From an uncultured Actinomycetes bacterium (GTDB lineage: Bacteria > Actinomycetota > Thermoleophilia > UBA2241): a stretch of 64,000 bases of DNA. Under the pieces are notes generated by a model. The model had not been told where the DNA came from, did not search any database, and was given only the letters and a program-made list of their open reading frames with translations. Below, piece after piece: positions 10,191-62,505 of the stretch. Each line of letters opens with the position of its first letter. Within the stretch, counting starts at the first letter, position 1. The DNA is taken from positions 64,001-128,000 of the forward strand of contig CAVWIH010000020.1 of the NCBI GenBank assembly GCA_963755025.1, given 5' to 3'. Made by a program: the position numbers and the translations under genes.

Positions 10191-10837
10191 GTGCATTGCC
10201 CTTTCTGTGGTGACGAAGACAGCCGTGTGGTCGATTCGCGCGATTCCGAGTCGGGCGACACCATCCGCCGGCGCCGCGAATGCGGCCACTGCGGACGGCG
10301 CTACACCACCTACGAGCGCGTCGAAGAAGCGCCGTTGCTGGTCGTCAAGCGCAGCGGCGCCGAAGAGGTCTTCGCGCGCGCCAAGCTGCTGAACGGCTTG
10401 CTGCGCGCCTGCGAGAAGCGCCACATCTCGCTCGAGCGCATCGAGCGCATCTCCGACGAGATCGAAGGCGAACTGCGCCGCGAGTCGGTGCAGCAGGTCA
10501 CCTCGGTCGAGATCGGCGAGCGCGCGCTGCGCTACCTGCGCGACCTCGACCGCGTGGCCTACATACGCTTCGCGTCCGTCTATCGCCAGTTCGACGACAT
10601 CGACGAGTTCCAAAGCGAGCTCGCCCGCCTCGACGAGCCGGCCGCAAACGATGGACCGGGCGAGCGAACGGCCGACGCGACGCGCGAGCACGCGGCCGAC
10701 GCGCCGCGCGACCGGGCGACCGACAAGCCACACGACCGGGCGGTCGACGGGCCGCCCCCCACCGCAACGTCAGACGACGCGCCGGTCGACCAGCCGGCGC
10801 TGACCACATCGAACAGAGCAGGGGGCATGACTCATGA
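10191..10837 (+). CDS. nrdR: Transcriptional repressor NrdR with a low-complexity C-terminal extension
   Basis: CPFC...SRVVDSR...[20 protein letters not shown] cone and [13 protein letters not shown]; GTG start with AGGAG RBS. Confidence 0.96.
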
Positions 10838-13083
10838 CTGAGACGGGGCGCGACGTGATAGAGCTGTCGGCCAACGCACTCAAGGTGCTGCAACGTCGCT
10901 ACCTCAAGAAGGGCGAGAACGGCGAGCTGCAGGAGACGCCCGAGCAGATGTTCCGTCGCGTCGCCCGGGCGATCGCCCAGGCCGAGCGGCTGCACAACCC
11001 GAGCGCTCCGGTCGAGCAGGTCGAAGAGACCTTCTACGAGCTCATGTCGAGCCTCGAGTTCATGCCCAACAGCCCCACGCTCATGAACGCCGGTCGCGAG
11101 CTCGGTCAGCTCTCGGCCTGTTTCGTGCTGCCCGTCGGCGACTCCATGGACTCCATCTTCGAGGCCATCAAGAACACCGCCCTCATTCACAAGAGCGGCG
11201 GCGGCACCGGCTTTTCGTTCTCGCGCGTGCGCCCCAAGAACGACGTCGTGCTGTCGACCGCCGGGGTCTCGTCGGGCCCGCTGTCGTTCATGAACGTCTT
11301 CGACGCCGCCACCGAGACCATCAAGCAGGGCGGCACGCGGCGCGGCGCCAACATGGGCATCATGCGCGTCGACCACCCCGACATCCTCGAGTTCATCAAC
11401 GCCAAGCACAACGACGACTGCCTCAACAACTTCAACATCTCGGTGGCCGTCACCGACGCCTTCATGCACGCGGTCGAAGCCGACGAAGAGTACGCCCTGC
11501 TCAACCCGCGCTCCGGCGAGACGGTGCAGATGCTCAAGGCGCGCAAGGTCTTCAACCTCATGGTCACGCTAGCCTGGAAGAACGGCGACCCCGGCGTCGT
11601 GTTCATCGACCGCATCAACGAGCACAACCCCACGCCCCAGCTGGGTCCCATCGAGAGCACCAACCCCTGCGGCGAGCAGCCCCTGCTGCCCTACGAGTCG
11701 TGCAACCTGGGTTCGGTCAACCTCGCCCGCGTGTGCGACGACGGCCACCTCGACTACGGTCGCCTGGGGCGCATCGTCAAGACCGCCGTGCGCTTCTTAG
11801 ACAACGTCATCGACGTCAACAACTACCCGCTGCCGCAGATCGCCGAAATGAGCCGCGGCAACCGCAAGATCGGCCTGGGCGTCATGGGCTTCGCCGACAT
11901 GCTCTTCAGGCTCGGCATCCCCTACGACTCCGACGAAGCCGTGCACCTGGCCGGCGAGCTCATGGAGTTCGTGCACGCCCAGGCGCGAGAGGCCTCTATC
12001 GAGCTCGCCGAAGAACGCGGCGTGTTCCCCAACTTCGCGGGCTCCATCTACGACGTCGAAGGCGGCCCCCGGCTGCGCAACGCCACCGTCACCACCATCG
12101 CCCCGACCGGCACCATCTCGATCATCGCCGGCTGCTCGAGCGGCATCGAGCCCCTGTTCGCCCTGGGCTACGTGCGCCGCAAGGTATTAGACGACGACGA
12201 GATGGTCGAGCTCTACCCGTACTTCGAAGAGGTCGCCCGGCGCGAGGGCTTCTACTCCGACGAGCTCATCAAGCGCGTCGCCGACCAGGGTTCGGCGCGC
12301 CACGTCGACGACGTGCCGGCCGTGTGGCGCAAGGTCTTCGCCACCGCCCACGACGTCACGCCCGAGTGGCACATCAAGCTGCAGGCCGCCTTTCAGGACG
12401 CCACCGACAACGCCGTCTCAAAGACGGTCAACTTTCCCAACGACGCCACCGCCGACGACGTCGACAAGGTCTACCGCCTCGCCTTTCGCTCGGGCTGCAA
12501 AGGCGTCACCATCTACCGCGACGGCAGCCGCGACGAGCAGGTGCTGAACGTGGGGGCCGCCTACAAGCAGGGCGCTCCGCGCGACCCGGCCGCCGGCGGC
12601 ATCGCCACCACGCGGCCCTCGCGGCCGCGCCTGCTGTCGGGCGAGACCGAGCGCATGGACACCGGCTGCGGCAAGCTGTTCGTCATCATGAACGACGACG
12701 AGCACGGCCCGCGCGAGGTCTTCGCCAACATGGGCAAGGCCGGTGGCTGCGCCTCGTCGAACACCGAAGCGCTCGGCCGGCTGATCTCGCTGGCCTTAAA
12801 GAAGGGCGCGTCGCCGAGCGAGGTCGTCGACCAGCTCAAGGGCATCCGCTGTCACGTGCCCTACGGCATGGGGCCCAACGCCACGCTGTCGTGCGCCGAC
12901 GCCATCGGCAAGGCCATCGAACGGCGCTACATCACGGGCGCCGCCGCGCCGGCCGCCACCATCGAGCCGCAGCTCGCGCTCGTCGAGGTCGCCCAGGGCG
13001 CCTGCCCCGACTGCGGCGGCTCCATCGAACACGAAGGCGGCTGCGTGGTGTGCCGCACCTGCGGCTACTCCAAGTGCGGCTGA
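10834..13083 (+). CDS. nrdJ: Class II (adenosylcobalamin-dependent) ribonucleotide reductase with C-terminal TSCPD/Zn-ribbon domain
   Basis: [59 protein letters not shown] and terminal CPDC...[10 protein letters not shown]; no nrdB nearby. Confidence 0.95.
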
Positions 13084-24093: not shown

Positions 24094-25473
24094 CTAGCCC
24101 ACTCGCTGCGTCGGCGAGAACGTCTGCACGATCTGCTCGAGCATCGGTTCTATGGCGTTCCAGTCGCGGACGAGCGACCCGGCGAAGATCGCGAAGTCGC
24201 GGCCCCCGTTTTCGAGCGCACTCATGGCGAAGCGGTCGATCCCCGAGACGTAGGTCGTGCGCCGTGCCGGGAGTCCGTTGACCGTGACCCGTTCGCTTTC
24301 GTGCTCCAGCTCGCAGTCTATCCACGCCGCATGCATCACGCCGGGCACGATGGCGGCCAGGCTGGTCAGCCGCCCCGATTCGTCGGTGGTCGTGGAAGAC
24401 CGCAGCTTCGCGACGTACACGGCGACCATGGGGGCCGTGGCGTCGGCGACGCTGCCGATGGCCGCAGCGTCCCTGTCGCCGAACAGGACCGACCAAACGC
24501 CGTGTCCATGCCCCTCGCCGAGGACCACGGAGTCGGCGGGCAGCGTCAGGCTGAAGCTGTGGCGCGGGTCGCGATACGTGACGAACCCGGGGTCCGCCGC
24601 CGGCGCGATGACCCGGTACGTTCCCGACTTCTGCTCGAGGCCGGGATGCCGCAAGGACTGGTGCGCCCGCCGGTCGGCAAGCCAGGCCACCTTCGCGTCG
24701 ATCAGCGCGTGCCAGACGCGCTCGTCGGCCGAGTGGCGCAGGGCGCCCATGACGAACGAGCGAGAGCGCGGCTGGTCGAGGAGGGCAAGGAGAGCGTCGA
24801 CCCCCGGCTGGCCGCACGCGGACAGGAGCTTCGCGAGCCAGCGACACAGGTCGGGCGATCGCGACTTCCGGAGCATCTCGCCGACCTGCTGTGCGTGGCC
24901 GGGGGTGGGATCGCGTGCGAGCAGCTCGGCCTGGGCCCTTACCGCCAGCTCGTTCTTATCGCGCTCCGTGCGGAGGCCCCGGCCGGCCTGGCGTCGTCGC
25001 GAGCCTTGCCGTTCGTCGTCAAACGTCTCCCTGCGGGCCTCGCCTGGCCGCCGCTCGGTCGGCGGCGGCTCGCCCCGCGCCGCCAGCCGCGCCTTGCGCC
25101 GCGCGATGAGCTGGGCATGGTGAACCTCGCGCCACAGCGGCTGCTGTTGCTCGAACGCCTGCACGGCTTGGGTAGCGCGCGGTTCGTCGAGCGAGGCCAG
25201 CGCCTGTTTGGCAAAGGGTCGCGTGTTGATGTCCTCAAGGAGCTGGACGAGGGCCTCGAACCCCGGGTCGCCGCACCGGGCGAGCGCCGCGGCTGCGGCC
25301 TCGTTGACGGCGCCGGAGTAGCGGTCGTGAAAGTAGGCGACGAGCGCGCTCGCCGCCTCGGTGTCGCCGAGGTCGCCGAGAGCCTGCGCCGCCGCGATCC
25401 TGTCGCTCTCGTGTTTACTGCACAGCAGCGTCGTGCGGAGCGTCGGGAACTCTCTGGCCATCTCCCTGCCCAT
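24094..25473 (-). CDS. HEAT-repeat protein with a PsbP/DcrB-like C-terminal segment
   Basis: RIAAAQALGDLGDTEAASALV and AAAAALARCGDPGFEALVQLL; C-terminal YRDPRHSFSLTLPAD...ERVTVNGLPA. Confidence 0.6.
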   Translation of the reverse strand: MGREMAREFPTLRTTLLCSKHESDRIAAAQALGDLGDTEAASALVAYFHDRYSGAVNEAAAAALARCGDPGFEALVQLLEDINTRPFAKQALASLDEPRATQAVQAFEQQQPLWREVHHAQLIARRKARLAARGEPPPTERRPGEARRETFDDERQGSRRRQAGRGLRTERDKNELAVRAQAELLARDPTPGHAQQVGEMLRKSRSPDLCRWLAKLLSACGQPGVDALLALLDQPRSRSFVMGALRHSADERVWHALIDAKVAWLADRRAHQSLRHPGLEQKSGTYRVIAPAADPGFVTYRDPRHSFSLTLPADSVVLGEGHGHGVWSVLFGDRDAAAIGSVADATAPMVAVYVAKLRSSTTTDESGRLTSLAAIVPGVMHAAWIDCELEHESERVTVNGLPARRTTYVSGIDRFAMSALENGGRDFAIFAGSLVRDWNAIEPMLEQIVQTFSPTQRVG

Positions 25474-26152
25474 GACGTTCGTACGGTTCCCGGTGGAGTC
25501 TACATCGGCCCCCGTCCTGCCGCGCCGGCTCGTCGTGCTGTGCCGACTCCTCTTGCTCAGCCGTCTCGATGAGCGCGCGCACCAGACAGCCGATCATGAA
25601 GGCGAGGCACTCGAACTCGAGGAACTCGATGGCCGTCCTGTCCAGCATGATCTGCACGCCGACCGGAAAGTCGTCGTCGGCCTCTTCGAAGGCAAGCTTG
25701 ACCGGGATCTTCGGAAGCACCGCGAATTTCCACAGATGAGAGCCCGCGCGCGACGCCTCTTCGACGCCGCCCAGCCTCGTCGCTGCCGCGCTGAACGCGC
25801 CGTAGCCATCGGCGAAGTATCGCTCGAGCGGATCGCTCATCAGCCGGCTCTGCGCCCCGAGCATGCCGACCATCCGGGGCAGGGCCTCGACTAAGACGTA
25901 GGAACCTTCTGGGTCGCCGCGTCCTGTGGAGAACAGGTAGTAGAGCAGGACGCTCAACGTGTTGACGTTGGTCGGTCGGCCGTCGTCGCACTGCACGCCG
26001 TCGCGAGTGATGCGATACGGCCTGCCCAGAAAGGTCAGGCGAACGCTGCCCTCGACGTGATCAAGGCCCAGGCGGCCGGCGGCCTCGCGAAAGTCGCACT
26101 CGGGCAGCCGGGCGACCAGCCCGCGGTAGATCGAGTCGTAGCCTCCGTGCAC
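25415..26152 (-). CDS. DUF3786 domain protein
   Basis: LTFLGRPYRI, VLLYYL and FAVLPKIPVKLAFEEADDDFP...IMLD...FL..ECL. Confidence 0.85.
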   Translation of the reverse strand: MHGGYDSIYRGLVARLPECDFREAAGRLGLDHVEGSVRLTFLGRPYRITRDGVQCDDGRPTNVNTLSVLLYYLFSTGRGDPEGSYVLVEALPRMVGMLGAQSRLMSDPLERYFADGYGAFSAAATRLGGVEEASRAGSHLWKFAVLPKIPVKLAFEEADDDFPVGVQIMLDRTAIEFLEFECLAFMIGCLVRALIETAEQEESAQHDEPARQDGGRCRLHREPYERHGQGDGQRVPDAPHDAAVQ

Positions 26153-28661: not shown

Positions 28662-29246
28662 TCAGGCTGCCTTGGTCACGTCCTGCTCGGCGGTCGCCGT
28701 CACGCTGCCCGTCGCCCTGTTGACCCGCCGGGCGTGGACGAAGCCCAGCACGGAGAGGACCAGGAGGATGGCTCCGCCGACGAGGCTCACGATCGCGGCG
28801 ATGCCGACGATCATGCCGACGGTGCCGAACGCGTAGGCGTTCAGCAGCAGGCCACGCAGGGTGGTGCCCTGGAACAACGTGGCTTCCTGGGTCTTAAGGG
28901 TGACGTTGGTGGGATCGGCGAGCGCCGCGGAGCTCACCTGTGCGTAGGTCTTGCCGCCGGCGACCTCGCTCAGGTGCACGGCGATGAAATGGTTGGCGTA
29001 GGTCTGCGCCTGAGCGCCGGTGGTGAGTTGCTGGCCGGCGTACTTCTGCATCGCCACGAACTGCGGACCGGCGATCGCCGGGCTACCCTTGGGCGGGAAG
29101 AAGATCTTCTGCGAAGCGAGCTGCGTGTGGACCTGGTTGTCGATGTAGGTATGACCCCAGACCAGGAGGCCACCGGCCGCCAGGAGTACGACGGCGACGA
29201 TCAGACCGGTCCAGCTTATGAAGTAGTCGACGAATCTGCGATCCAT
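28662..29246 (-). CDS. Conserved actinobacterial-type hypothetical membrane protein
   Basis: N- and C-terminal TM; QLASQKIFFP, YAGQQLTTGAQAQTYANHFIAVHL and TLFQGTTLRGLLLNAYAF; AGGAGG RBS. Confidence 0.75.
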   Translation of the reverse strand: MDRRFVDYFISWTGLIVAVVLLAAGGLLVWGHTYIDNQVHTQLASQKIFFPPKGSPAIAGPQFVAMQKYAGQQLTTGAQAQTYANHFIAVHLSEVAGGKTYAQVSSAALADPTNVTLKTQEATLFQGTTLRGLLLNAYAFGTVGMIVGIAAIVSLVGGAILLVLSVLGFVHARRVNRATGSVTATAEQDVTKAA

Positions 29247-29448
29247 GGTGACCCCTCCTGAGTGACGCCGCGGGGCCGTTGCGGCCCCGCGTTGCGGATA
29301 CTTTGTGAGGGTTATCACCGTGACCGCAGTGTTTTAACCACGTGAACGCGCGATCGCGGCGGGCCGAGAGGGTCGGCACCCCAAGGGAGGGGCCGCGCGG
29401 CTCGACAGTGCCGCGCGGCCCCACATGCGTCGGTGGTGTCCGGGCCGC

Positions 29449-31053
29449 TCAGTCGGGCGGCAGCAGCCTCACCGTCATGGTGAGGCTCGTGCCGCGGCGC
29501 TCGCGCACGACGGCCACCATGCGGTAGATCGCCAGGCAGCCCGCGAGGATGGCGACCCAGAGCAGGATCGCCTTGGGCTGGTGGGCGATGCTCGTGCCCG
29601 AGTTGGCGTCGGTCAGGTTGAGGTACGCGGCCACGAGCACGGGCGGTATGGTCACGATGCCGAGCCACGTGAGCGAGCTCAGGCCGGCAAAGCGGCGCGC
29701 CGGCGGCAGGGTGAAGTTGCGCCGGCCGGCCACCCGCGGCAGCACGATCGCCACCAGAGCGACGCAGAGCCATTCCGTGAACATGACGATCATGCCCGAG
29801 AGCAGCGAGAGGTGGGCGTAGATCATGAGCGCCGTGAACACGGTGGCCACGGCGAAGGTCAGCAGCAGGGCGCGGTAGGGGGTGTGCCAGCGGGGGTGCA
29901 CCTCGGCGCACCAGCGCGGCAGGAGACCGTCGAGCGACCAGGCGAACAGGCAGCGCGAGACGCACATGGCGGTCGGTCCCACCCAGGCGAAGCCCCACAC
30001 CGTGAAGGCGGCCATGAGGGCGATGGCCAGCACGCCGTGGTGCAGCGCGAGGGCGACCAGCTCGGCGAAGGCCGGCGTAGAACCCAAGCCGAGCTTGGCG
30101 GCCGGCGTGAAGGCCAGGTTGGCGAAGAACGTCATGCCGAACAGGTGGCTCAGGGCGAAGGTCACGCCCAGCAGCCAGGCGAGGGTCCAGGTCGTGGCGC
30201 CGAGCACGCCGATCGACTGCGTGCGGGCCGGACGGCGCACCTCGCCGGCGATGAACACCGAGAAATAGCAGCCCAAAAAGACGATCCACGGCCAGATCGC
30301 GGCGTGCAGCGTGGCCGACCAGGAAAAGCCGGGCGCCTTGCCGGCGGCGAGCGCCGCGACCGGCCCGGCGTGGATACGCGCCAGCTGGCCGTCGACGTGG
30401 GCCAGGGCGCCGGCCCGCGAGAACAGCAGGGCGGCGATCACGACGGCGGCCAGGGCGGCCGTGCCCAGCACGAAGGCCGCGCCCTGGGCGCGAAAGTAGA
30501 GCTTGCCGCCGCGGATCATGAGCGCCGCGTAGGCGGCGAGCACGGCCAGCGAGACGAGGAAGGTGCCGGTCGGGGTGCTCAGCCAGTTGGCCAGATGGTT
30601 CGCCCCGGTGCTGCCGGTGTAGGCGGCCGCGACGCGCGCCAGCGGGGTGAGGCCGTACTCCACCGTGTAAAGGCCGCCGAGCCCCACGAACAGGCAGAAG
30701 TAGGCCATCGCCGCGGCGTTCACGGCGAAGCCCAGGGCGGGGCTCAGCGTGCGCGAGATCGAGACGTAGTCGCCGCCCGAGCGCGGAAACGCGACGGCGA
30801 GGCGCACGTAGAGCAGGTTGAGCGGCAGGATGCCGACGAAGGCCAGCAGCACGGCCAGGTAGAGGTTGGCGCCGGGGTAGAGGCCGGGGCCGAGCAGCGT
30901 GAGCCACACCAGGCCTATGCCGATGTTGGCGTTCATCACGTTGAAGCCAAACACCTGCCACGAGGTGATCTCGCGCACCAGGCCGCTGGCCTGCCGCGCG
31001 AACGGGCTCACCGCCGAGCGCTGCGCCGCGGATTGCTGTGAGAGAGCTTGCAT
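29449..31053 (-). CDS. APC family (amino acid permease) transporter
   Basis: FARQASGLVREI, FPRSGGDYVSISRTL, AGEVR and SRCLFAWSLDGLLP...VHPRWHTP; about 12 TM; GGAGG RBS before ATG 31053. Confidence 0.9.
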   Translation of the reverse strand: MQALSQQSAAQRSAVSPFARQASGLVREITSWQVFGFNVMNANIGIGLVWLTLLGPGLYPGANLYLAVLLAFVGILPLNLLYVRLAVAFPRSGGDYVSISRTLSPALGFAVNAAAMAYFCLFVGLGGLYTVEYGLTPLARVAAAYTGSTGANHLANWLSTPTGTFLVSLAVLAAYAALMIRGGKLYFRAQGAAFVLGTAALAAVVIAALLFSRAGALAHVDGQLARIHAGPVAALAAGKAPGFSWSATLHAAIWPWIVFLGCYFSVFIAGEVRRPARTQSIGVLGATTWTLAWLLGVTFALSHLFGMTFFANLAFTPAAKLGLGSTPAFAELVALALHHGVLAIALMAAFTVWGFAWVGPTAMCVSRCLFAWSLDGLLPRWCAEVHPRWHTPYRALLLTFAVATVFTALMIYAHLSLLSGMIVMFTEWLCVALVAIVLPRVAGRRNFTLPPARRFAGLSSLTWLGIVTIPPVLVAAYLNLTDANSGTSIAHQPKAILLWVAILAGCLAIYRMVAVVRERRGTSLTMTVRLLPPD

Positions 31054-31190
31054 GTGCCGACCTCCGGATCCTCGCCAGAAAACAACAAATCCCGGGCCGC
31101 CTCTCTGCGAGACTGCCCGGGACCCTGACGCTGCTGGATCCGTGCACGAGCAGTGCCCGCCCCGTACCACGGGGGCGGCGACGGCACCGC

Positions 31191-31353
31191 TTGGAGACAG
31201 GTCTTCTGGCTTGCCGGATCGTCCTTGCGCCGCACCTTCCCACCGGCGTAAAGCCGGCAGTGGCGTGTTCAGCGGCGGTCGTCCCCGGTCACAGCGGCGG
31301 GTCCGCGACGGCTTTGCACCGTCTTCCCTCGAGGCCCCTTACGGGCATCTCCG
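31191..31353 (-). promoter_or_regulatory. Cobalamin (AdoCbl-type) riboswitch
   Basis: Minus strand reads AGGGAA-gacGGTGCAAAGCCgtc-GCGGA-CCCGCCGCTGTGA...GCCACTG...TGGGAAGG...AAGCCAGAAGACCTG (B12 box). Confidence 0.93.
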
Positions 31354-31580
31354 TCGTTAAGGGTAACGGGGTGCGCGGGGGAGCGTCAACCCAGGGCGGG
31401 CCGGCGTCGGTCCCATCAAACGCATAGGACAGCGCCGGCCGCAGTGCTCGACGAAGTCCTGGCGCTGCTCGACGCGTGTCTCTACTGAGCGCCGCCGGAC
31501 GCGTCACCTGACCCGCTCCAGCGCGGAAGAATGCCGGCACGGGAACGGCGCGGAGCGGCGCCCGCTCCGCTCAGGCCCCG

Positions 31581-34228: not shown

Positions 34229-35089
34229 CTAGGCAAGCACCGCGTCGACGGGCACCATGTGCTTCTTGAGGCCGAGCTCGCCGTCGCCCACGCCGATGGC
34301 GCGGCCGACGAACTGGCTCAGGTAGACGATCGGCACCTCGACCCAGCTGGGGTCGGCCTTTTTGATGTCGCCCTGCCGCGTGTCCAAGTTGACCTGGCAG
34401 AGCGGGCAGGCGCAGGCGATGGCCTGGGCGCCGCAGGCGCGGGCGTTGGCCACGATCTTGCGCACGAGCTCGACCACCACGGCCTGCTCGCAGAGCGCCA
34501 GCGAGGCGCCGCAGCAGTCGGTCTTGAAGGTCCACTCCACCGGCTCGCAGCCCAGGGCCTCGAGCACTTCGTCCATGTGCGTGGGGTACTCGGGGTCTTC
34601 GGCCAGGGTGACCTTGGGCGGCCGGGTGAGCAGGCAGCCGTAGTAGGCGGCCACCCGCAGGCCGGCGTAGGGGCGCTTGACCTTGGCCTTGAGCGTGTCG
34701 AGGCCGACCTCGTCGTGGTAGATGTCGACCAGGTTGAGCACGCCGACGCCGCCCGTGTAGGGGCGACCGACGACCTGGGCCACGTCGCGCGCCGTCTCGT
34801 CGTCTTGCACGTCGTGGTTGGTGGCCATGAAGCGGGCAAAGCAGGCGGCGCAGGGCACCGCGACGCGCTCGAGGCCGAGGTCGTCTTTGACCTTGGCCAT
34901 CTCGTTGGCCGGCAGGGCGGTGGCCAGCAGGCGGTTGGTGGCGTGCGCGGCGGTGTTGCCGCAGCACTCCCAGCCGGGGATCTCGACGAGGTCGACGCCG
35001 AGCGCTCTGGCGGTGCCCCGGAACGAGCTGTCGAGCTCGGGGGCGGTGCCGTGCAGCGAGCACCCGGGGTAGTAGGCGACGCGGCTCAT
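34229..35089 (-). CDS. hdrB: Heterodisulfide reductase subunit B
   Basis: YYPGCSL, WECCG, PCAAC, YYGCLLTRP, DCCGAS and ACPLCQVNLD (two CCG domains). Confidence 0.93.
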   Translation of the reverse strand: MSRVAYYPGCSLHGTAPELDSSFRGTARALGVDLVEIPGWECCGNTAAHATNRLLATALPANEMAKVKDDLGLERVAVPCAACFARFMATNHDVQDDETARDVAQVVGRPYTGGVGVLNLVDIYHDEVGLDTLKAKVKRPYAGLRVAAYYGCLLTRPPKVTLAEDPEYPTHMDEVLEALGCEPVEWTFKTDCCGASLALCEQAVVVELVRKIVANARACGAQAIACACPLCQVNLDTRQGDIKKADPSWVEVPIVYLSQFVGRAIGVGDGELGLKKHMVPVDAVLA

Positions 35090-35706
35090 GCGACACCTCC
35101 TGGGCCCGACTCGGCGGGCGCCTTGGCGGGCAGGTCCATCGCCTGAGCGATGGCCCGCTTGTCGCGCGTGATGCGGTCGGCGACCTGCGCCATGCGCTTC
35201 ATCTGCGGACGGTCGCCCAGCGTGGGCAGCGGGTTGATCTTGCCCTTTAAGAACATGCGGATGCCCATCGCCACGTCGTCGGTGAAGCTCGAGGGCCGCG
35301 TGATCTTGTCGAGGGCGAGCAGTTCGACTTCGTAGAGACGGCCCCAGCGCCGGAACGAGTCGTAGTTGAGCTTGAGGATGTTGGCAAAGGGCGCGTCGGA
35401 GCGCACGCGGCCTTCTTCGCGGGCGATCATGCGCAGCTCGTCCATGATGGCTGCGATGTCGATGCCCTGGGGGCAGCGCGTGGTGCAGGTCTCGCAGCCG
35501 GTGCACAGCCAGATGAAGCGGCTGTCGACGGCGGCGTCGACAGCGCCGATTTGCACGGCGCGCATGACCTGCGCCGGGTGAAAGTCGCCAAAGCCGGCGA
35601 CCGGGCAGCCGGTGCTGCATTTCTTGCACTGGTAGCACTTGTAGGCGTTCTCGCCCGAGCCACGGTTGACGCGGCGGGCGAGCGTGGCATCGATGGTCGT
35701 CGTCAC
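35086..35706 (-). CDS. hdrC: Heterodisulfide reductase subunit C
   Basis: CYQCKKCSTGCP and IWLCTGCETCTTRCPQGID; AAGGAGG RBS. Confidence 0.92.
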   Translation of the reverse strand: MTTTIDATLARRVNRGSGENAYKCYQCKKCSTGCPVAGFGDFHPAQVMRAVQIGAVDAAVDSRFIWLCTGCETCTTRCPQGIDIAAIMDELRMIAREEGRVRSDAPFANILKLNYDSFRRWGRLYEVELLALDKITRPSSFTDDVAMGIRMFLKGKINPLPTLGDRPQMKRMAQVADRITRDKRAIAQAMDLPAKAPAESGPGGVA

Positions 35707-35722
35707 GTCACCCTCCTTCCCG

Positions 35723-36669
35723 CTACGCCACAGCCGGGCGCGGCAGCAAGCCGGCGGCTTCGACGATCTCCGGCACGGCCGGCTCCCATTCGACGGCCAT
35801 GAGGTGCACGCCGGCCACTCCTTCGATCTCGGCGATCTCCTTGATCATCTCGACCGCGAGCTTTTTGCCCTCGGCCTGCTGCTCGGCGCCCTTTTCTTTG
35901 CGCGGCGATGCGATCGACGATCTCCTGCGGCACGTCCATGCCCGGCACGAAGTTCTTCATGTACTTGGCCATGCCGGCGCCCTTGATGGGGGTGATGCCG
36001 GCGAGGATCTTGATCTCCTTGTGCAGGCCGATGGCACGCACCTCTTCCATCCACTTCTTGAACTTGGGGATGTTGAAGATGCACTGGGTCTGCATGAAGT
36101 CGGCGCCGGCCTCGACCTTCTTCTTAAGGCGCAGGGCGCGGAACTCGAACGGGTCGCCGAACGGGTTCTCGGCGCAGCCGATGTAGAGCTCGGGCGACAC
36201 GGCCATCTCGTCGCCGCACTGGAACTTGGCCTCGTCGCGCATGTCCTTGTACATCTTGATCAGGTTGATGGCGTCGAGGTCGTGTACGCCCTTGGCTTGC
36301 GGGGTGGTTGCCGAAGCTCATGTGGTCGCCGGTCAGGCAGAGGATGTTCCTGATGCCCAGCACGTAGGCGCCGAGGATGTCGGCCTGCATGGCCAGGCGG
36401 TTACGGTCGCGGCAGGTCATCTGCATGATCGCCTCGAGGCCGTTCTGCTGGGCCTGCACGCCCGACGCCATGGAGCAGACGCGCACCACGGCGGTCTGGT
36501 TGTCGGTGATGTTGACGGCGTCGACGAAGCCCTTGAGGATCTTGGCCTTGTCGGCGATCACGCTGCCGTCGGCGCTCTTGGGCGGACCGCACTCGCCGGT
36601 GACCGCGAACTTGCCCTCGGAAAGGATCTTCTCGAGGTTGCTGCCTGCCTTGTACTCGGTCGCGGTCAT
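35723..36669 (-). CDS. metF: Methylenetetrahydrofolate reductase MetF (frameshifts near 36295 and 35900)
   Basis: FAVTGECGPPK, NITDNQ, QMTCRDRNRLAMQAD, CLTGDH | KKVEAGADFMQTQ | GVHLMAVEWE, spread over three frames. Confidence 0.88.
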
Positions 36670-37349
36670 ACCGGCTTCGCCTCCTCACGCACCATCTTGC
36701 GGGGGCCGCCGGAACTGCCCTTGCTCCAGTTCTTGGGCGGCCGATTGACGAGCATCAACTCTTCGCGACCCTGGGCCCTGAGGCGCTCCCAGATGAGCGC
36801 CCAGGCGCACTCGATGTCTTCTTTTTCGGGGGTCGTGACTTCGCACTTGCCGTCGTGCGAGCCGCCGCAGGGGCCGTTCATGAGACTCTTGGAGCAGCGC
36901 ACCACCGGGCAGATGCCGGCGGTCTCGCCGATGACGCAGTCGCCGCAGGCGCCGCAGCGCTCGAGCCACACGGCGTGCTCTTGCGGCATGCCCAGCATGT
37001 TGGTGTTGACGGCCGGCATGACCAGGCGAGGGCTGAACTTCTCGGCCATCGACTGGACGCCTATGCCACAGGCCATGCTCAGCACGAGCGGGTACTCTTC
37101 GACCTTGGCGCCGATGGCGTCGAGGTACTCCCACTCGCACTGGCGGATGGCGGCGGTGTGCTCGATCTGCACGTCGCGACCGTCTTCTTTGGCCTTGATG
37201 CGCAGCTGGGCGGCGAGGATCTCGGCCTCTTTTTCGCCGCCGGTCAGGCAGACTGCGACGCACGTGTCGCACCCGGCCACCAGGACTTTGTCGTGCCCCT
37301 CGGTCATGGCGTAGATCTCGTCGAAGGGCTTGCGTTCGGCTGTGATCAT
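36666..37349 (-). CDS. metV: MTHFR small Fe-S subunit MetV
   Basis: GCDTCVAVC.TGG, RQCE, MACGIGVQ, ERCGACGDC...GICPVVRCSKSLMNGPCGG and CAWALI. Confidence 0.9.
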   Translation of the reverse strand: MITAERKPFDEIYAMTEGHDKVLVAGCDTCVAVCLTGGEKEAEILAAQLRIKAKEDGRDVQIEHTAAIRQCEWEYLDAIGAKVEEYPLVLSMACGIGVQSMAEKFSPRLVMPAVNTNMLGMPQEHAVWLERCGACGDCVIGETAGICPVVRCSKSLMNGPCGGSHDGKCEVTTPEKEDIECAWALIWERLRAQGREELMLVNRPPKNWSKGSSGGPRKMVREEAKPV

Positions 37350-37380
37350 CTTGAGTGTCCTTCCTCCACGAAGATCGCGG

Positions 37381-37968
37381 TCATGCGCTTGGGGGGGTGT
37401 CGGCGTCGTCGGGCATGGCCAGGGCGCCCATCTCGCGGACGACGACCTCGTGGGCCGTGAAACCGTCGCGCGGACGCACCGGGTTGGGCCCCAGGCCGCG
37501 GATGCGCGCGGTGAAGTCGCGCGCGGTCTGGGCGAACTGCGGGCCCATGGCCGACGACATGTTGTACATCTCGACGCGACCGGGGTCGACGCCGATCTCT
37601 TCGAGCAGCTTCTTGACGTAGCCCACCCGCTTTTTGGCCCAGAGATTGCCCTTGAGGTAGTGGCACTCGCCCTCGAGGCAGCCCGCGGCGTAGACGCCGT
37701 CGGCGCCGGCTTCGAGCGCCTTGAGCAGGTGGATGACCTCGAGCTTGCCGGTGCAGGGCAGCTTGATCATGCGGATGTTCGAGGGGTACTGCAGGCGCAT
37801 GCTGCCCGCCAGGTCGGCGGCCGCATAGGCGCAGTAGTGACAGGCAAAGACGATGATCTCGGGCTCGAAGCCCTCGTTTGCCGGCAGGTCGGGCGCGGCG
37901 TCGCCTGCGGGGGCCGCGCCTTGTGAGTCGGCGGGAGCCGCGGCGGCCGCGGTGGGCTCGTCGGCCAT
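37381..37968 (-). CDS. mvhD: MvhD/FlpD [2Fe-2S] subunit
   Basis: FACHYCAYAAADLAGSMRLQYP, PCTGK and GADGVYAAGCLEGECHYLKGN. Confidence 0.93.
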   Translation of the reverse strand: MADEPTAAAAAPADSQGAAPAGDAAPDLPANEGFEPEIIVFACHYCAYAAADLAGSMRLQYPSNIRMIKLPCTGKLEVIHLLKALEAGADGVYAAGCLEGECHYLKGNLWAKKRVGYVKKLLEEIGVDPGRVEMYNMSSAMGPQFAQTARDFTARIRGLGPNPVRPRDGFTAHEVVVREMGALAMPDDADTPPSA

Positions 37969-37969
37969 C

Positions 37970-40900
37970 TCAGCTCACCTCCATCGTGAGCGCCTCTTCT
38001 TTGGCGAAGATCTGCGCGTCGGTGTAGTGGTGCAGGACGATCGCCTTGGCGGGGCACTCGCTGACGCACACGCCGCAGCCCTGACAGGCGGCCGCTTCGA
38101 TCACGGCCTTCTTGGCGACCGGGTCGATGGTGGGCACCTCGTAGGGGCAGATGCGCACGCAGGTGAGGCAGGCGGCGCATTTGTCTTGATCGACCTCGGC
38201 CACCACGCCGCCGGCTTTGAGGGCCGGCTTGGCGAGGATGGCGGCGGCGCGGCCGGCGGCCGCGTAGGCCTGGCTCACCGACTCGTCGATGCTCTTCGGG
38301 TAGTGGGCGCCGCCGCACAGGAAGATGCCTTCGCTGGCGAAGTCGACGGGGCGCAGCTTGACGTGCGCTTCGAGGAAGAAGCCGTCGCCCTGGAGCGGCA
38401 CCTTGAGCATTTTGGAGAGCTCGGAGGCGCCGTCGTTGGGAACGGTCGGGGTGGCCAGCACGAGCAGGTCGAGCGGCAGCTCGACGCGGCGCTGCAGGTA
38501 GGGGTCGGTGTAGGCGACCTTGACCGGCGTGCCGGGCTTGCCGTTGGCGGCGCTGCCGGCGCTCACGATCTCGGGCTTGGAGTCGTTGTCGTAGCGCGTG
38601 AAGATCACGCCGAGCTCGCGCGCCCTGGTGTAGTACTCCTCGAAGAGGCCGAAGGTGCGCACCTCTTTGAACCACACGTAGACGGGCCGCTCGGGGTCTT
38701 GTTCCTTTAGGCGGATGGCGTTTTTGACGCTCTGCTGGCAGCAGGTGCGCGAGCAGTAGTTGGCGCCCTCTTCGAGCGAGCCGGCGCAGAGGATGAAGCC
38801 CACCGCGTCGGCCTTGGCCAGGCGCGCCTGGTCGGTGGCGAAGAGGTGCTCGAGCTCGAGGCCGGTGACGATCTTGTCGCTCTGGCCCAGGCTGTACAGG
38901 TCGGGGCGCGCCTCTTGCGAGCCGGTGGCCACGATGACGACGCCGTGGTCGATGGGCGTACGCCGCCCGTCGGCGGCGGCGATGACGCTCGAGAAGTTGC
39001 CGATGAAGCCGTGGAAGTCTTCGAGCGTGGACGCCAGGTGGATCTTGACGTTGGGGTTGTCGATGACGCGCTGCTGCAGGGCGGCGGCGAAGTCGGCCGG
39101 GCGCGAGCCCTTGATGGTCTGGTCGAGCTCGAGCACGCGGCCGCCGAGGGCGGCTTCGCGCTCGACCAGGTGGACCTCGTGGCCCATCTCGCCGAGGGCC
39201 GCGGCGGCGGTCATGCCGGCCACGCCGCCGCCGATCACGACGGTGGCGTGCGTGAGCGGCACGTCGACCTTGTAGAGCGGCTCGAGCAGGCGCGCCCGGG
39301 CCACGGACATGCGGATGAGGTCTTTGGCCTTGTCGGTGGCCTCGCCGGGGTGGTCGCGGTGCACCCAGCTCGCCTGGTCGCGGATGTTGGCCATCTCGAA
39401 CAGGAAGGGGTTGAGACCGGCCTCGCGCAGGGTGTCCTGGAAGATCGGTTCGTGGGTGCGCGGCGTGCAGCTGGCCACGACGACGCGGTTGAGGTCGTGC
39501 TCGGCGACCATGTCCTTGATGAGGGTGAGCGAGTCGGACGAGCACGTGTACATGGTGTCGTTGGCGTAGACCACGCCGGGCAGCTTGAGGGCGTACTCGG
39601 CGACGCCTTCGACGTCGATCACGCCGGCGATGTTCGAGCCGCAGTGGCAGACGAAGACGCCCACCCGCGGTTCGACGCCCACGACGTCGTGCTCGGTCGG
39701 GTACTCCTTGTCGACCGTGAGCGTGCCGCGCGAGTCGGACAGGCCGGTCATGACCTTGGCCGCCGCGGCCGAGGCCTGGGCGACGGAGTCGGGGATGTCT
39801 TTGGGCTCGCCGAACGGGCCCACCACGTAGACGCCCTCGCGGCTCGAGTCGAGCGGCGCGTACTCGTGCAGCTCGCAGAAGCCGTGGCGGTTGAGGGCCA
39901 CGCCGAGCTTGCCGGCGGCCTCTTGCGCCTTGCGCGCCGGCTCGAGGCCGGCGGACAGCACGACCATGTCGTAGCGGTCGGTGTGCAGGGCGCCCGTCTC
40001 GTCTTCCCAGGTGATGAGCAGGTCGTGGGTGAGCGGGTCCTCTTTGATGTACGAGGGCCGCGAGCGGATGAAGTTGACGCCCATGTCCTGGGCGCGCTGG
40101 TAGAAGGCGTCGAAGCCCTTGCCCTGGGCGCGCATGTCCATGAGGAAGACGTCGGGCTTGACGCCGGGCACGTGGTCGATAGTGAGCATGGCCTGCTTGT
40201 TGGCGAACATGCAGCAGACGCTCGAGCAGTACTCGTGGTCCTGGTCGCGCGAGCCCACGCACTGGATGAAGGCGATCTTGCCGGGGTGCTCGCCGTTCGA
40301 CGGGCGCTTGACCTCGCCGATCGGTGGGGCCCGAGGCGGAGAGCATGCGCTCGTACTCGAGGGCCGAGAGGATGTTGGGGTAGCGGCCGTAGCCGTACTC
40401 GCCCTTGTTGCCGGGGTCGTAGAGGTCGAAGCCGGTGGCCAGCACGACGGCGCCGACCTCGACGTCGAACTCGCGGTCGTGCTCGCCGTGCAGCAGGGCG
40501 CCCGGGCCGCAGGCCCGCACGCACTCCATGCACTCCGAGCAGACGGCGCAGTTGAGGCAGCGCTTGGCTTCGGTCACGGCCTGCTCGGCCGAGAAGCCGG
40601 TGTTGACCTCGTCCCAGGTGAGCTTGCGGGCGGCGCCGGCCAGGTGCGGCATGGCGAGGCGCGCCATGACTGCGGTCTGGGCCAGCACGTCGTCGTCGGG
40701 CTTGGCTTCGTCCATGGACTCGTCGTCTAAGGGCAGCAGCTCTTCGCCGCGCAGGAAGTTGTGGATGGCGCGGGCGCCGCGGCGGCCGGCGGCGACGGCC
40801 TCGATGGCCGTCCAGGGGCCGCGCGCGGCGGCGTCGCCGCCGGCGAACACGCCCTCGCGGCCGGTGGCCTGGGTCTGCTTGTCGATGACGATCTGGTTGC

Positions 40901-48793: not shown

Positions 48794-48968
48794 GTCCTTC
48801 CCATGCTCGCGGCTGCCTGCGCGGTGAGCCTGATCGCCGGTCCATCTTCGTGCCGTAGTATGCCCCGTAGTCTACGCCACCAGCGCCGGCGTGCGCACAA
48901 CGGCCTGCCGCGCGCCGTCGGCCGCGAGCGTTGGCAGTGGGGCGCGGCGGGGGATAGGGTGTTGACCG

Positions 48969-50585
48969 ATGGTCTCCGTAGCAGACAGTCAAGGCGCAGG
49001 CGACGGCCCCGACGGCCGCGTCGTCGGCTTCATCGACATCGGCACCAACTCGGTGCGGCTCATGGTCGTGCGCATCTCGTCGCGGCGCTCCTACCAGGTG
49101 ATCAACCTGCAGCGCGAGGTCGTGCGCCTGGGCGAAGAGGAGTTCGCCGACCACATGCTACGCCCGGCGGCCATAGAGCGCGGCGTGCTCGTGTGCCGCT
49201 CGTTTGCCGGCCTCGCCCGCAGCCACGGCGCCACCGAGGTCCTCGCCGTGGCTACCTCGGCGACTCGCGAGGCGCGCAACCAGGGCACGTTCGTGAACCG
49301 CCTGCACGACGAGGCCGGCATCGACGTGCGCGTCGTGTCGGGCCGCGAAGAGGCGCGCCTCATCTACCTGGGCATCCAGAGCCGCGTCGAGCTCGGGCAA
49401 CGCACCGTGTTCTGCTTAGACATCGGGGGCGGCAGCACCGAGGTCATCGTGGGCGACACGCGCCGCCATCTCTTTCTCGACAGCCTGCCGCTGGGCGCCG
49501 TGCGCCTGGCCGGCGACCCGGCCCTGCCCGACGTCTCGGGCCGTGTCTCGGGCGACGATTACCAGCGGCTGCAGCGCGCCGTGCGCCTGGCGTCGGTGCA
49601 CGCCGTGGCCGCCGTGCGCAAGTTCGACATAGACGGCGCCTACGGCACCTCGGGCACGGTGCGCAACGTGGCCGCGGTCGCCGCCCGCGTGCTGCACGAC
49701 CGCGAGCCGCAGCGCGACGAGACGGCGAGCCTCGCCGACGTGCGCAAGGTGGTCAAGCTGCTGCGCGGACTGTCGCTCGACGAGCGCCGCAAGGTGCCCG
49801 GCCTCAACCCCGACCGCGCCGACATCGTGATCGCCGGCGCCGTCGTGCTCGAGACCCTGATGAGCGACATCGGCCTGCCCTCAGTGACGGCTCTGAGCGA
49901 AACGGGCTTGCGCGACGGCCTGCTCATGGACTACCTGTCGCGCGGTCCCGACGCCGCCCTGGTGCACGAGCTCAGCGTGCGCGAGCGCAGCGTCTGGCGC
50001 CTGGTGCACGCCTGCGGCGCCGACGAAGACCACGCCCGCCACGTGGCGCGCCTGGCGCTCGAGCTCTTCGACAGCTCGCGCGAGGCCGGCTTTCACGCGC
50101 TCGGCGACGAGGAGCGCGAGCTGCTCGACTACACCTCGCTGCTGCACGATGTGGGCACGTTCGTGTCGTACCCCGACCACCACCACCATTCGGCGTACCT
50201 CATCGCCAACGCCGACATGCTGGGCTTCGACCAGCGTGAGATCGCCATCATGGCGGCCACCGCGTTGTTCCACCGCAAGTCGGCGCCCGGCGTGCGCTAC
50301 CCGGCCTTCGCCCAGCTCGACCAGCCGGCGCGCGCCACGGTGCGCAACCTGGCCAACCTGCTGCGGCTGGCCGAGCGCCTCGACCGCAGCCATAGCGCGG
50401 TCGTGCGCCACGCTCGTCTGGTGGCCGACGGCCGTCGCTCGCTCAAGCTGCTGCTCACCACCACCGGGCCGGCGCGCCTTGAGCTCTGGGGCCTCGAGAA
50501 CCGGCGCGTGTCGATGGAGAAGGCCATGGGGCGTCGCCTGAGCATCGAGGTCGAGTCGTCGTCGGGCAGCGACGACGACTCCTAG
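48969..50585 (+). CDS. ppx: Exopolyphosphatase Ppx/GppA with HD domain
   Basis: IDIGTNS, ATSATREARN, EEARLIY, DIGGGSTE, RADI, GLRDG and LLHDVG. Confidence 0.92.
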   Translation: MVSVADSQGAGDGPDGRVVGFIDIGTNSVRLMVVRISSRRSYQVINLQREVVRLGEEEFADHMLRPAAIERGVLVCRSFAGLARSHGATEVLAVATSATREARNQGTFVNRLHDEAGIDVRVVSGREEARLIYLGIQSRVELGQRTVFCLDIGGGSTEVIVGDTRRHLFLDSLPLGAVRLAGDPALPDVSGRVSGDDYQRLQRAVRLASVHAVAAVRKFDIDGAYGTSGTVRNVAAVAARVLHDREPQRDETASLADVRKVVKLLRGLSLDERRKVPGLNPDRADIVIAGAVVLETLMSDIGLPSVTALSETGLRDGLLMDYLSRGPDAALVHELSVRERSVWRLVHACGADEDHARHVARLALELFDSSREAGFHALGDEERELLDYTSLLHDVGTFVSYPDHHHHSAYLIANADMLGFDQREIAIMAATALFHRKSAPGVRYPAFAQLDQPARATVRNLANLLRLAERLDRSHSAVVRHARLVADGRRSLKLLLTTTGPARLELWGLENRRVSMEKAMGRRLSIEVESSSGSDDDS

Positions 50586-50612
50586 AGCTTGCCGGCCTGT
50601 TCGCGGCGCGAT

Positions 50613-52967: not shown

Positions 52968-52977
52968 GATGGCGCGG

Positions 52978-53458
52978 TCACCTTTCGCTTAAGAAGACGC
53001 GCGGCGGCAGCAGCCAGACGAGCGTGCCGCGCATGGTCTGCTCGTCGAGGTCGACGCGGGCGACGCCCGCCTTCTTGACGGCCACGGTCGCGCCCGTGAG
53101 CTGCGCGATGGTGGCGCTGAAATCGGGCTCGTGGCCCACGAGCATGAGGGTGCGGGCGCCGGGGTGGTCGGCGACGACGGCCGCCAGGCGCCTGCGGTCG
53201 AAGTCGCGGGCGAGGCGCTCGTCGTCGGCGAGCCGGTCGGCGCAGCCCAGCGCCGCGGCGGCGATCTCGGCCGTCTGGCGCGCGCGCACGAGCGGGCTGC
53301 GTGAGCAGGGCGTCGACGGCGACGCCCGCGCGCGCCAGGACGTCGGCGACCAGCGCCACGACGCCGCGGCCGTCGTCGGTCAGCGGGCGCTCGGCGTCGG
53401 GGCCGTGCCAGTCGGCCCTGGAGCCCGCGGGTCCGTGGCGCAGGAAGATGATCTGCAT
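52978..53458 (-). CDS. sixA: Phosphohistidine phosphatase SixA (frameshift near 53300)
   Basis: FLRHG...ERPLT | SPLVRARQTA...LVGHEPD. Confidence 0.85.
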
Positions 53459-53467
53459 GTCGGTCCC

Positions 53468-55708: not shown

Positions 55709-55865
55709 AGAGGGCTCTCCCCCGGAGGTTTTACCGACCATTTATAGTACCCCATCGGAACGTATCGACCGTACGGCCGCCGTATGTGAGGGCGCGCCGC
55801 GCGGCGCGCTCGGCGCGCGCCGACGAGGCGCCGCGCGGCTGGGGCGTTCCGGCGTTGCGACGCGG

Positions 55866-62233: not shown

Positions 62234-62505
62234 GCGGCCGCGCACCCGCCGTCGAAACACGTTCCCCGGACGCCTTTGCCGGGCGCAAGCTCCGGTCAGG
62301 ATGACCCACGGCACATGGGAGCGCCTGCTTACCGCTGCTTCCTCCCGGACCTGACGGGGTTCGCAGGTTCCCATTGCGTGGGGCCCGACCATCGACGCCG
62401 CGCGTCGGCCGACTGCTCCACAGAATGGCCCCTCGGGCGGGGATTCAGCCCCGCTGTAGCGGATTGCGGGTACAGGGCACCGCTGGCTCCCCGCCTAGCG
62501 CGGCC
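62234..62505 (-). ncRNA. ffs: Large-type (Alu + S domain) signal recognition particle RNA
   Basis: 5' GGCCGCGCTAGGCGGGGAGCCAGCGGTGCCCTGTACCCGCAATCCGCT (Alu domain) and GTCAGGTCCGGGAGGAAGCAGC (helix 8); 5'/3' ends pair; upstream TTGATT...TAGACT promoter; precedes dnaX. Confidence 0.95.

Follow-up and report, generated by a model that had tools for sequence, protein, structure and literature searches.

New functions in B12 transport and salvage have repeatedly come to light through genes that follow cobalamin riboswitches, and the cobalamin regulon of Listeria includes a precursor transporter, the alpha-ribazole carrier CblT. The lysine riboswitch precedes the APC carrier genes lysP and yvsH. 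Likewise the ykkC riboswitch precedes potE (passages of PMC2211319), and in all of these units one riboswitch stands directly 5' of one APC carrier that moves the sensed ligand or a close relative of it. Passages of PMC3766115 sort the genes of cobalamin regulons into four classes: biosynthesis, transport of B12 or its precursors, cobalt transport, and isozymes. Here we describe a locus that joins the cobalamin riboswitch to an APC carrier. It lies in a stretch of 64,000 nucleotides from an uncultured bacterium of the Thermoleophilia (GCA_963755025.1, contig CAVWIH010000020.1, positions 64,001 to 128,000), referred to in full length as the window, where a cobalamin riboswitch of Rfam family RF00174 precedes a single gene for an APC-superfamily permease, P0001. 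The riboswitch is an ordinary member of its family; what is new is its combination with this family of carriers. The preliminary description of the window had stated that an APC carrier is not a standard member of cobalamin regulons, and none was found in the literature searched, in which the supplementary gene tables of PMC3766115 and PMC2211319 could still list one.

The closest comparisons are with the btuFCD, cobU-cobT-cobS and cobA operons of the same genomes, which use the same RF00174 sensor and probably the same OFF logic. In contrast to these, the locus encodes a single APC secondary carrier rather than an ABC, ECF, BtuM or NiCoT transporter, and no B12 gene adjoins it: as had been claimed, there is no btu, cbi/cob or metE gene within about 5 kb of the unit. 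Riboswitch-controlled uptake of a part of the cofactor would fit the class of precursor transporters (passages of PMC3766115), although no sequence relation to CblT is expected. The metE and nrdAB/nrdDG genes found elsewhere under B12 riboswitches are likewise derepressed at low B12, but the product here is a carrier rather than an isozyme, in hosts where neither a canonical MetE nor a B12-independent ribonucleotide reductase was found, so that a full bypass of B12 is not to be expected. The lysP/yvsH and potE units offer the nearest parallel in layout; however, a corrinoid of 1.3-1.6 kDa is an unlikely APC substrate, and the link between ligand and cargo must therefore be indirect in the present case.

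The pairing of riboswitch and permease is conserved among relatives of the host. Orthologs of P0001 with 77-97% identity are present in all 11 other genomes of its genus (g1), with one more at 59% in a second genus, and Rfam identifies RF00174 before each of the 11 ortholog loci that retain a 5' flank; the contig breaks off at residue 93 of the twelfth, L010. At paralog loci of 36% identity or less, Rfam finds no riboswitch (0 of 12). Two wider sets were searched with a covariance model, R1, built from 18 riboswitches of the lineage and comprising 43 base pairs. Among 78 loci from species-representative genomes, R1 detects a riboswitch at all 10 loci of at least 59% identity with a 5' flank (L044 is cut) and at none of the 67 loci of 42% identity or less. 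Metagenome contigs, with 80 loci, give a riboswitch at 10 of 10 flanked loci of at least 58% identity (L127, L128 and L130 are cut) and at 0 of 67 loci of 44% or less. As a model of this lineage only, R1 could miss very different cobalamin riboswitches in archaeal or other distant loci; Rfam itself finds no riboswitch at R1-negative loci from the two sets (0 of 13 and 0 of 19), and 44 negative loci were rechecked with Rfam in total. Retention of the riboswitch by orthologs is thus seen in three sets, which partly overlap (the same species recur among the genome-based sets) and whose counts are not independent. One ortholog, in G007:C44 (L013/L020/L048), consists of two overlapping frames covering residues 1-371 and 357-534, the result of either a frameshift or an assembly error, and its riboswitch is intact with 94 bits.

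Phylogenetic reconstruction with FastTree places these permeases together. The tree holds 134 rows (126 different sequences), comprising the window and 133 of the 158 fetched loci; the other 25, including the frameshifted L048 as well as L127 and L130, were left out because their best match was shorter than 430 residues or contained a stop. With 20 rows labelled as having a riboswitch, 112 as lacking one and 2 of undetermined label, the riboswitch label needs a single change on the tree, and the riboswitch clade of 22 rows has an SH-like support of 100. The riboswitch-linked permeases are therefore a single clade of single origin that spans two genera. Flanking genes vary from strain to strain and include amidase, MarR, DeoR, PfkB and BNR-repeat proteins; the neighbourhood of the orthologs offers no functional hint, and the differences between strains indicate that riboswitch and permease form a self-contained, monocistronic unit.

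The components of the unit are listed in the table below. The riboswitch match in the window runs the full length of the model (positions 1-189 of 189) and well exceeds the gathering score of 31.5, as fits the complete riboswitch that had been reported there, and orthologous leaders score 90.3-107.9 bits. The aptamer ends 125 nt from the permease ATG on the same strand. The preliminary description had correctly placed the riboswitch before the permease and co-directional with it, but its distance of about 140 nt was too long, and its upper limit for the unit, 31353, falls 13 nt short of the 5' end of the aptamer. Both the B12-box core and the paired elements are retained in relatives, with the CCACTG core and the flanking GGGAAG invariant or nearly so in 18 aligned leaders (alignment A2, invariant columns 114-118 and 135-140). 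In the same 18 riboswitch leaders of the lineage the T, A and T of a -10-like TANNNT hexamer are invariant throughout (columns T11, A12 and T16). The leader of the window folds with -73.9 kcal/mol (z -3.08), and is more stable than shuffled sequences.

The aptamer is followed by a conserved co-directional expression platform with a terminator-like hairpin, a U tract and a ribosome binding site (RBS). Hairpin A, which also appears in the minimum free energy fold, retains its pairs in 11 or 12 of 12 leaders with one compensatory change, and may perhaps act as a kissing-loop partner. In the same RNAalifold alignment three pairs of hairpin B have changes on both sides; its U-rich tail is clear in the leaders of genus g1 and weaker in two leaders from the loci of 58-59% identity. 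The GGAGG motif is present in about 8-9 of the 12 leaders as counted by eye (the window, L040-L043, L045, L047, L125 and L124). A simple sigma-70 promoter scan of the window does not list the promoter-like element, and a simple terminator scan does not list hairpin B, the latter because the loop is longer than 8 nt. The best explanation of this arrangement, as predicted from the aligned leaders, is that a monocistronic permease gene is controlled by a cobalamin riboswitch of class-I type, which has its own promoter and an expression platform of the terminator type. By analogy with other cis-acting cobalamin riboswitches, described as OFF switches in passages of PMC11477304, it is presumably an OFF switch.

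Table. Features of the riboswitch-permease unit and other genes named in the text, in window coordinates.
Feature	Position	Strand	Basis
Promoter-like element: TTGACG (31389-31384), 18-nt spacer, TACCCT (31365-31360)	31360..31389	-	read from sequence; function inferred
Cobalamin riboswitch aptamer, RF00174	31179..31366	-	Rfam cmscan, 97.8 bits, E 3.6e-23
Hairpin A, directly 3' of the aptamer; 7 G-C-rich pairs, loop with invariant GUGGUA	31157..31178	-	RNAalifold
Terminator-like hairpin B, 11 pairs, followed by a U-rich tract	31075..31125	-	RNAalifold
RBS GGAGG, 7 nt 5' of the ATG	31061..31065	-	read from sequence
APC-superfamily permease P0001, 534 amino acids, ATG 31053 to stop 29449	29449..31053	-	reading frame, Pfam
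DUF3786 protein	25415-26152		Pfam
Class II type ribonucleotide reductase (Ribonuc_red_lgN + lgC + TSCPD), NrdJ-type	10831-13083		Pfam domains
Methylenetetrahydrofolate reductase (MTHFR)/MetV	35703-37349		

Contigs from four wetland metatranscriptome runs, each from a different study, are 90-99% alike to the window and extend over the leader and the greater part of the coding region, and one RNA-library contig of 444 nt bridges positions 30754-31194, joining the 3' end of the aptamer to the platform and the coding region. These contigs fit co-transcription of leader and permease in nature, notwithstanding that DNA may be carried over into RNA libraries, and they give no RNA levels. Positions 29300-29447 and 31372-31500 are covered by no contig in any of the four runs, which could reflect the ends of the transcript or strain-variable flanks.

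The permease itself is readily assigned to a superfamily and to nothing narrower. P0001 matches the Pfam family AA_permease_2 (PF13520) with 52.6 bits against a cut-off of 27, over residues 33-500 and profile positions 5-425 of 427, and AA_permease with 43 bits; these two APC families are the only Pfam families matched at an E of 0.1 or better. An AlphaFold (AF2) model has 12 long helices (pLDDT 82.8, pTM 0.84), and Foldseek relates it to 305 PDB chains at an E of 0.001 or better, headed by y+LAT1, AdiC and BasC, with APC matches at E 2e-10 to 1e-8 and TM-scores of 0.62-0.74 on target length. Model and matches together indicate the 12-helix LeuT-type fold, in agreement with the 12-helix APC permease originally described. 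The solved transporters AdiC, BasC, ApcT, GkApcT/CAT, LAT1 and y+LAT1 share this fold, the 12 helices and the Pfam family with P0001, but those among the Foldseek relatives (y+LAT1, AdiC, BasC, LAT1, ApcT and CAT) are only 13-20% identical to it. A phmmer search of the PDB with P0001 alone found nothing, and a profile of the family reached a best E of only 2e-5. No curated NCBIfam model of a characterised subfamily (BcaP, LAT, TIGR00909 and others) scores P0001 above its cut-off: the best match, BcaP, reaches 34.3 bits where its cut-off is 690, the remaining matches have 11.6-29.5 bits against cut-offs of 557-953, and on the question of an MmuP-like permease for S-methylmethionine or methionine no curated model fits either. 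A search of the ESM Atlas for hints to the substrate returned only unnamed clusters of 'APC family permease'. P0001 does not belong to the transporter families of B12 regulons (FecCD/Peripla_BP_2/ABC, CbiQ/ECF, NicO), and separate FecCD/Peripla_BP_2/ABC genes and a NicO gene are present in the host genomes. Judged by its sequence, P0001 is a highly divergent member of the APC superfamily that belongs to no characterised subfamily.

Five host genomes were examined closely: that of the window (G000), three further ones (G010, G011 and G006), and G015 from the second genus. The class II type enzyme is the one ribonucleotide reductase found in them, with neither NrdB nor NrdD in any of the five. 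Canonical MetE is likewise absent from all five, the weak matches in the family (f1) reaching at most 68 bits as against 489-494 bits for two genuine MetE proteins elsewhere in the class, and no full-length MetH is seen. Each genome instead has one stand-alone protein of about 300 amino acids with a homocysteine-binding domain, encoded beside an rsmI-type methylase gene and 80-90 kb away from the permease, which is the sole homocysteine methyltransferase found. It scores 183 bits to Thermotoga maritima MetH and 68 bits to the MmuM structure 5dml, 113 bits on the MmuM model NF007020 (cut-off 215), and 238 bits on the model for bacterial betaine-homocysteine methyltransferase (cut-off 338). Small B12-binding_2 corrinoid proteins number 6-16 per genome, and the combination suggests a split methionine synthase fed by corrinoid proteins. 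Taken together, the gene content in ribonucleotide reductases, MetE, MetH and corrinoid proteins, along with the DUF3786 gene and an HdrA-MvhD-MetV-MetF-HdrBC-like cluster in the window, argues strongly that these Thermoleophilia depend on B12.

The same genomes appear equipped to obtain and complete the cofactor. The riboswitch of the permease is the sole RF00174 match in G000, which is attributable to the assembly, as contig C5 opens partway through a btuF-like gene, with btuC after it; in relatives with better assemblies, two or three RF00174 riboswitches are present. One sister riboswitch precedes cobU at 5 loci, in an operon that in G010 continues with cobT, cobS, an open reading frame of 462 amino acids, a Fur-like gene, btuF, btuC and btuD, and another precedes cobA/btuR. 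Because BtuFCD and the genes of loop assembly are present and under riboswitch control, the permease need not be a corrinoid carrier. We note that the frame of 462 amino acids (L215:12693-14081, minus strand, in G010:C5), which lies between cobS and btuF together with the Fur-family gene, has no Pfam or NCBIfam match. G000 also has an anaerobic cbi cluster with NicO, a CobD-like aminotransferase, CobQ-like, CbiC, CbiD, two or three tetrapyrrole methylases, CbiG, CbiJ and CobA; this complete-looking cluster (L213, G000:C13:12000-30000) has no RF00174 match, unlike the permease. CbiC is found in G000 and G015 and not in G010 (96% complete), G011 (100%) or G006 (95%), and CbiB is present in 9 of the 11 other genus members in addition to G000, so that the permease occurs in likely producers and likely salvagers of corrinoids alike. 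No BluB scores over the cut-off in the five genomes or in the 36 of the family, and only 2 of 61 genomes in a sample of the class have one; a ThiC/Bza-family gene is absent from the five and present in 1 of the 36. Quite apart from B12, the near-absence of ThiC suggests that the family relies on external thiamine or its pyrimidine moiety.

On these grounds we tentatively favour, with a confidence somewhat short of even, the reading that the permease is an importer repressed by B12 which takes up a building block of cobamides, most likely the base of the lower ligand. With ample corrinoid, transcription would stop at hairpin B; when corrinoid is scarce, the permease would be produced and would bring in a small nitrogen-containing part for cobamide assembly. 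The best candidate for the cargo would be the free lower-ligand base, a benzimidazole-type or other nucleobase-like compound, with the aminopropanol linker less likely. The base is favoured because the hosts need B12 and have CobU, CobT and CobS without a known benzimidazole synthase. Since G000 produces its own corrin ring and encodes a CobD-like aminotransferase, ring precursors and linker would be less needed, and the lower ligand is the one part without a known source. 5,6-Dimethylbenzimidazole (DMB) is toxic as a flavin antagonist (abstract of PMC10468695), which would explain tight control of its uptake by B12. It is possible, though rather unlikely, that the clade as a whole represents the first dedicated importer of free lower-ligand bases (benzimidazoles or related heterocycles), combining the APC fold, direct corrinoid control and hosts that assemble or remodel cobamides while being unable to make the base.

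A second locus may bear on this reading. In G015 a riboswitch of 108.6 bits, whose aptamer is the closest paralog of that of the permease, precedes genes for an ABC permease (BPD_transp_1) and an NMT1/THI5-like binding protein, and immediately downstream of these comes a second riboswitch, that of cobU-cobT (L028, G015:C122:2354-5537, and L038, G015:C122:5649-8854). This ABC system is possibly a second importer of a precursor or lower ligand, and the arrangement indicates that in this lineage B12 also controls other importers of small molecules, next to genes for the lower ligand.

Several considerations weigh against import of a lower-ligand base. No APC member is known to us whose substrate is a benzimidazole or otherwise lacks an amino-acid or amine moiety. 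The general assumption is that free benzimidazoles pass membranes unaided, and if the hosts used purine or phenolic lower ligands import would be unnecessary. A sister group of permeases at 36-39% identity is encoded in an operon with the order AsnC regulator, permease, M24/creatinase-like protein, DUF3830 protein and metallophosphoesterase, in which neither R1 nor Rfam finds a riboswitch. This context suggests that the wider family handles amino-acid-like compounds and that the riboswitch clade is a later specialisation, and the weak best match to BcaP also makes the family look amino-acid related. The genes of the sister operon are co-directional at the loci concerned (L051-L057, L075, L131-L137), some of which have an ECF-type sigma factor and an MFS carrier upstream. 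BluB and ThiC are missing from nearly all of the family and not just in the permease-bearing genera, and CobT occurs in 25 of 36 family genomes, mostly without the permease. Finally, a conserved antiterminator, sought by eye and by folding across the aligned leaders, was not found, which leaves the OFF direction inferred. CbiB, too, occurs in many genomes without the permease. The model for L-threonine-phosphate decarboxylase matches ordinary aminotransferases everywhere and exceeds its cut-off in just 3 of 37 genomes, all outside genera g1 and g5, a result that neither supports nor excludes aminopropanol import. The preliminary description had proposed a precursor importer as well as a bypass of B12-dependent methionine synthesis; the former gains indirect support from CobU, CobT and CobS in the near-absence of BluB and ThiC/Bza, but co-occurrence with CobT, CbiB, BluB, ThiC and MetE did not separate the two.

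A doubtful though serious alternative is that the permease, derepressed at low B12, imports methionine, or else a methyl donor (S-methylmethionine or glycine betaine, for example) that would serve B12-independent methylation of homocysteine; it would then be the transport counterpart of a metE gene under a B12 riboswitch. Methionine and related compounds are common substrates of APC carriers, so that the chemistry of the family fits this cargo better than a building block, and the resemblance to BcaP, however weak, and the AsnC-type amino-acid regulator of the sister group point the same way. The absence of canonical MetE from all five genomes and of any full-length MetH, with methionine synthesis probably proceeding via corrinoid proteins, would give such an importer a role when B12 runs short, and the stand-alone methyltransferase has a match, below cut-off, to betaine-homocysteine methyltransferase. 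The biology of the hosts suits this reading less well. That enzyme is MetH-domain-like rather than MmuM-like and encoded far from the permease, and MetE is missing throughout the family, not only in the permease-bearing genera. With NrdJ as the only ribonucleotide reductase found, imported methionine could not release the cell from its need for B12. A methionine carrier would also be expected to respond to S-adenosylmethionine (SAM), but the SAM-I riboswitch of the lineage, one per genus g1 genome, precedes metK (the downstream gene was checked in G000) and not a carrier. The literature searched, passages of PMC3766115 included, yielded no methionine transporter controlled by a cobalamin riboswitch.

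It is less probable still that the riboswitch acts as an ON switch and the permease imports a methylated amine or similar compound for corrinoid methyltransferase systems, even though relatives in the APC superfamily carry choline, ethanolamine and polyamines. The numerous small corrinoid proteins of these genomes would suit such a system, as would the DUF3786 gene and the HdrA-MvhD-MetVF methylene-tetrahydrofolate reductase cluster in the window; but no gene for a methyltransferase or corrinoid protein is linked to the unit in the loci examined, the conserved terminator-like hairpin and U tract 3' of the aptamer match the arrangement usual for OFF switches, and cobalamin riboswitches are described as OFF switches (passages of PMC11477304). 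Transport of a corrinoid (cobinamide or cobalamin) or of cobalt would explain why the permease is the sole riboswitch-controlled transporter besides BtuFCD in genus g1, yet it is very improbable, given that BtuF, BtuC and BtuD are already provided by the riboswitch-cobU operon and a NicO-type carrier by the cbi cluster of G000, and that the occluded pocket of the APC fold is small and solved relatives of the permease carry amino acids and amines. That the riboswitch is an orphan left by loss of a btu or cob gene, with the permease regulated by accident or not at all, has nothing in its favour beyond the absence of adjoining B12 genes and is rejected as having next to no likelihood, because the unit retains its own conserved -10 element and sits among different neighbours, with the pairing kept in all flanked orthologs down to 58% protein identity, spacing and platform hairpins conserved, and the 444-nt RNA-library contig joining aptamer, platform and coding region; the riboswitch genuinely belongs to the permease, as the preliminary description had held.

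The window has a G+C content of 70.8% and belongs to a metagenome-assembled genome of 3.37 Mb that is 84% complete; near-identical public contigs derive from uncultured Thermoleophilia and Actinomycetota of peat, palsa, bog and soil. The permease is neighboured by genes for a protein with two transmembrane helices, a protein of 106 amino acids without a Pfam match, an HTH_20 regulator, a PAS protein, CCG/Fer4 proteins and the DUF3786 protein. The two-helix protein gene (28662-29318), whose product has no Pfam or NCBIfam match, often lies 3' of the permease, and in several strains a gene on the opposite strand or an amidase gene stands between them. The three features that had been cited as signs of corrinoid demand in the window, namely the class II type ribonucleotide reductase, MTHFR/MetV and DUF3786, are all present. 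Of these, MTHFR/MetV is part of a row of genes on the minus strand (34229-40573) for HdrA-like (411 bits to 5odc_A), MvhD/FlpD, MetV (DUF5981), MTHFR, and Fer4 and CCG (HdrC/B-like) proteins, which has the layout of an acetogen-type Hdr-MvhD-MetVF methylene-tetrahydrofolate reductase, here in a genome of the Thermoleophilia. Elsewhere in the window, a Ppx/GppA phosphatase, a CYTH-CHAD protein and polyphosphate kinase adjoin in a cluster for polyphosphate metabolism (48966-55741), and a bacterial large signal recognition particle RNA lies at 62238-62503 on the minus strand (191.2 bits).

The riboswitch marks a family of carriers that falls outside the known classes of the B12 regulon, and it does so in uncultured and abundant actinobacteria of peat and soil whose DNA synthesis depends on B12, as probably do their methionine synthesis and methyl-group metabolism. 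In these hosts the permease points to a small nutrient that would be imported when B12 runs short. Should the cargo be a methionine or methyl donor, the permease would be the first transport-type bypass in the B12 regulon. If it is instead a lower-ligand base or other part of the cofactor, the permease would identify an uptake step in cobamide cross-feeding for which no protein is known, and a lower-ligand base in particular would make it the uptake step that has long been missing from lower-ligand cross-feeding in soil and peat.

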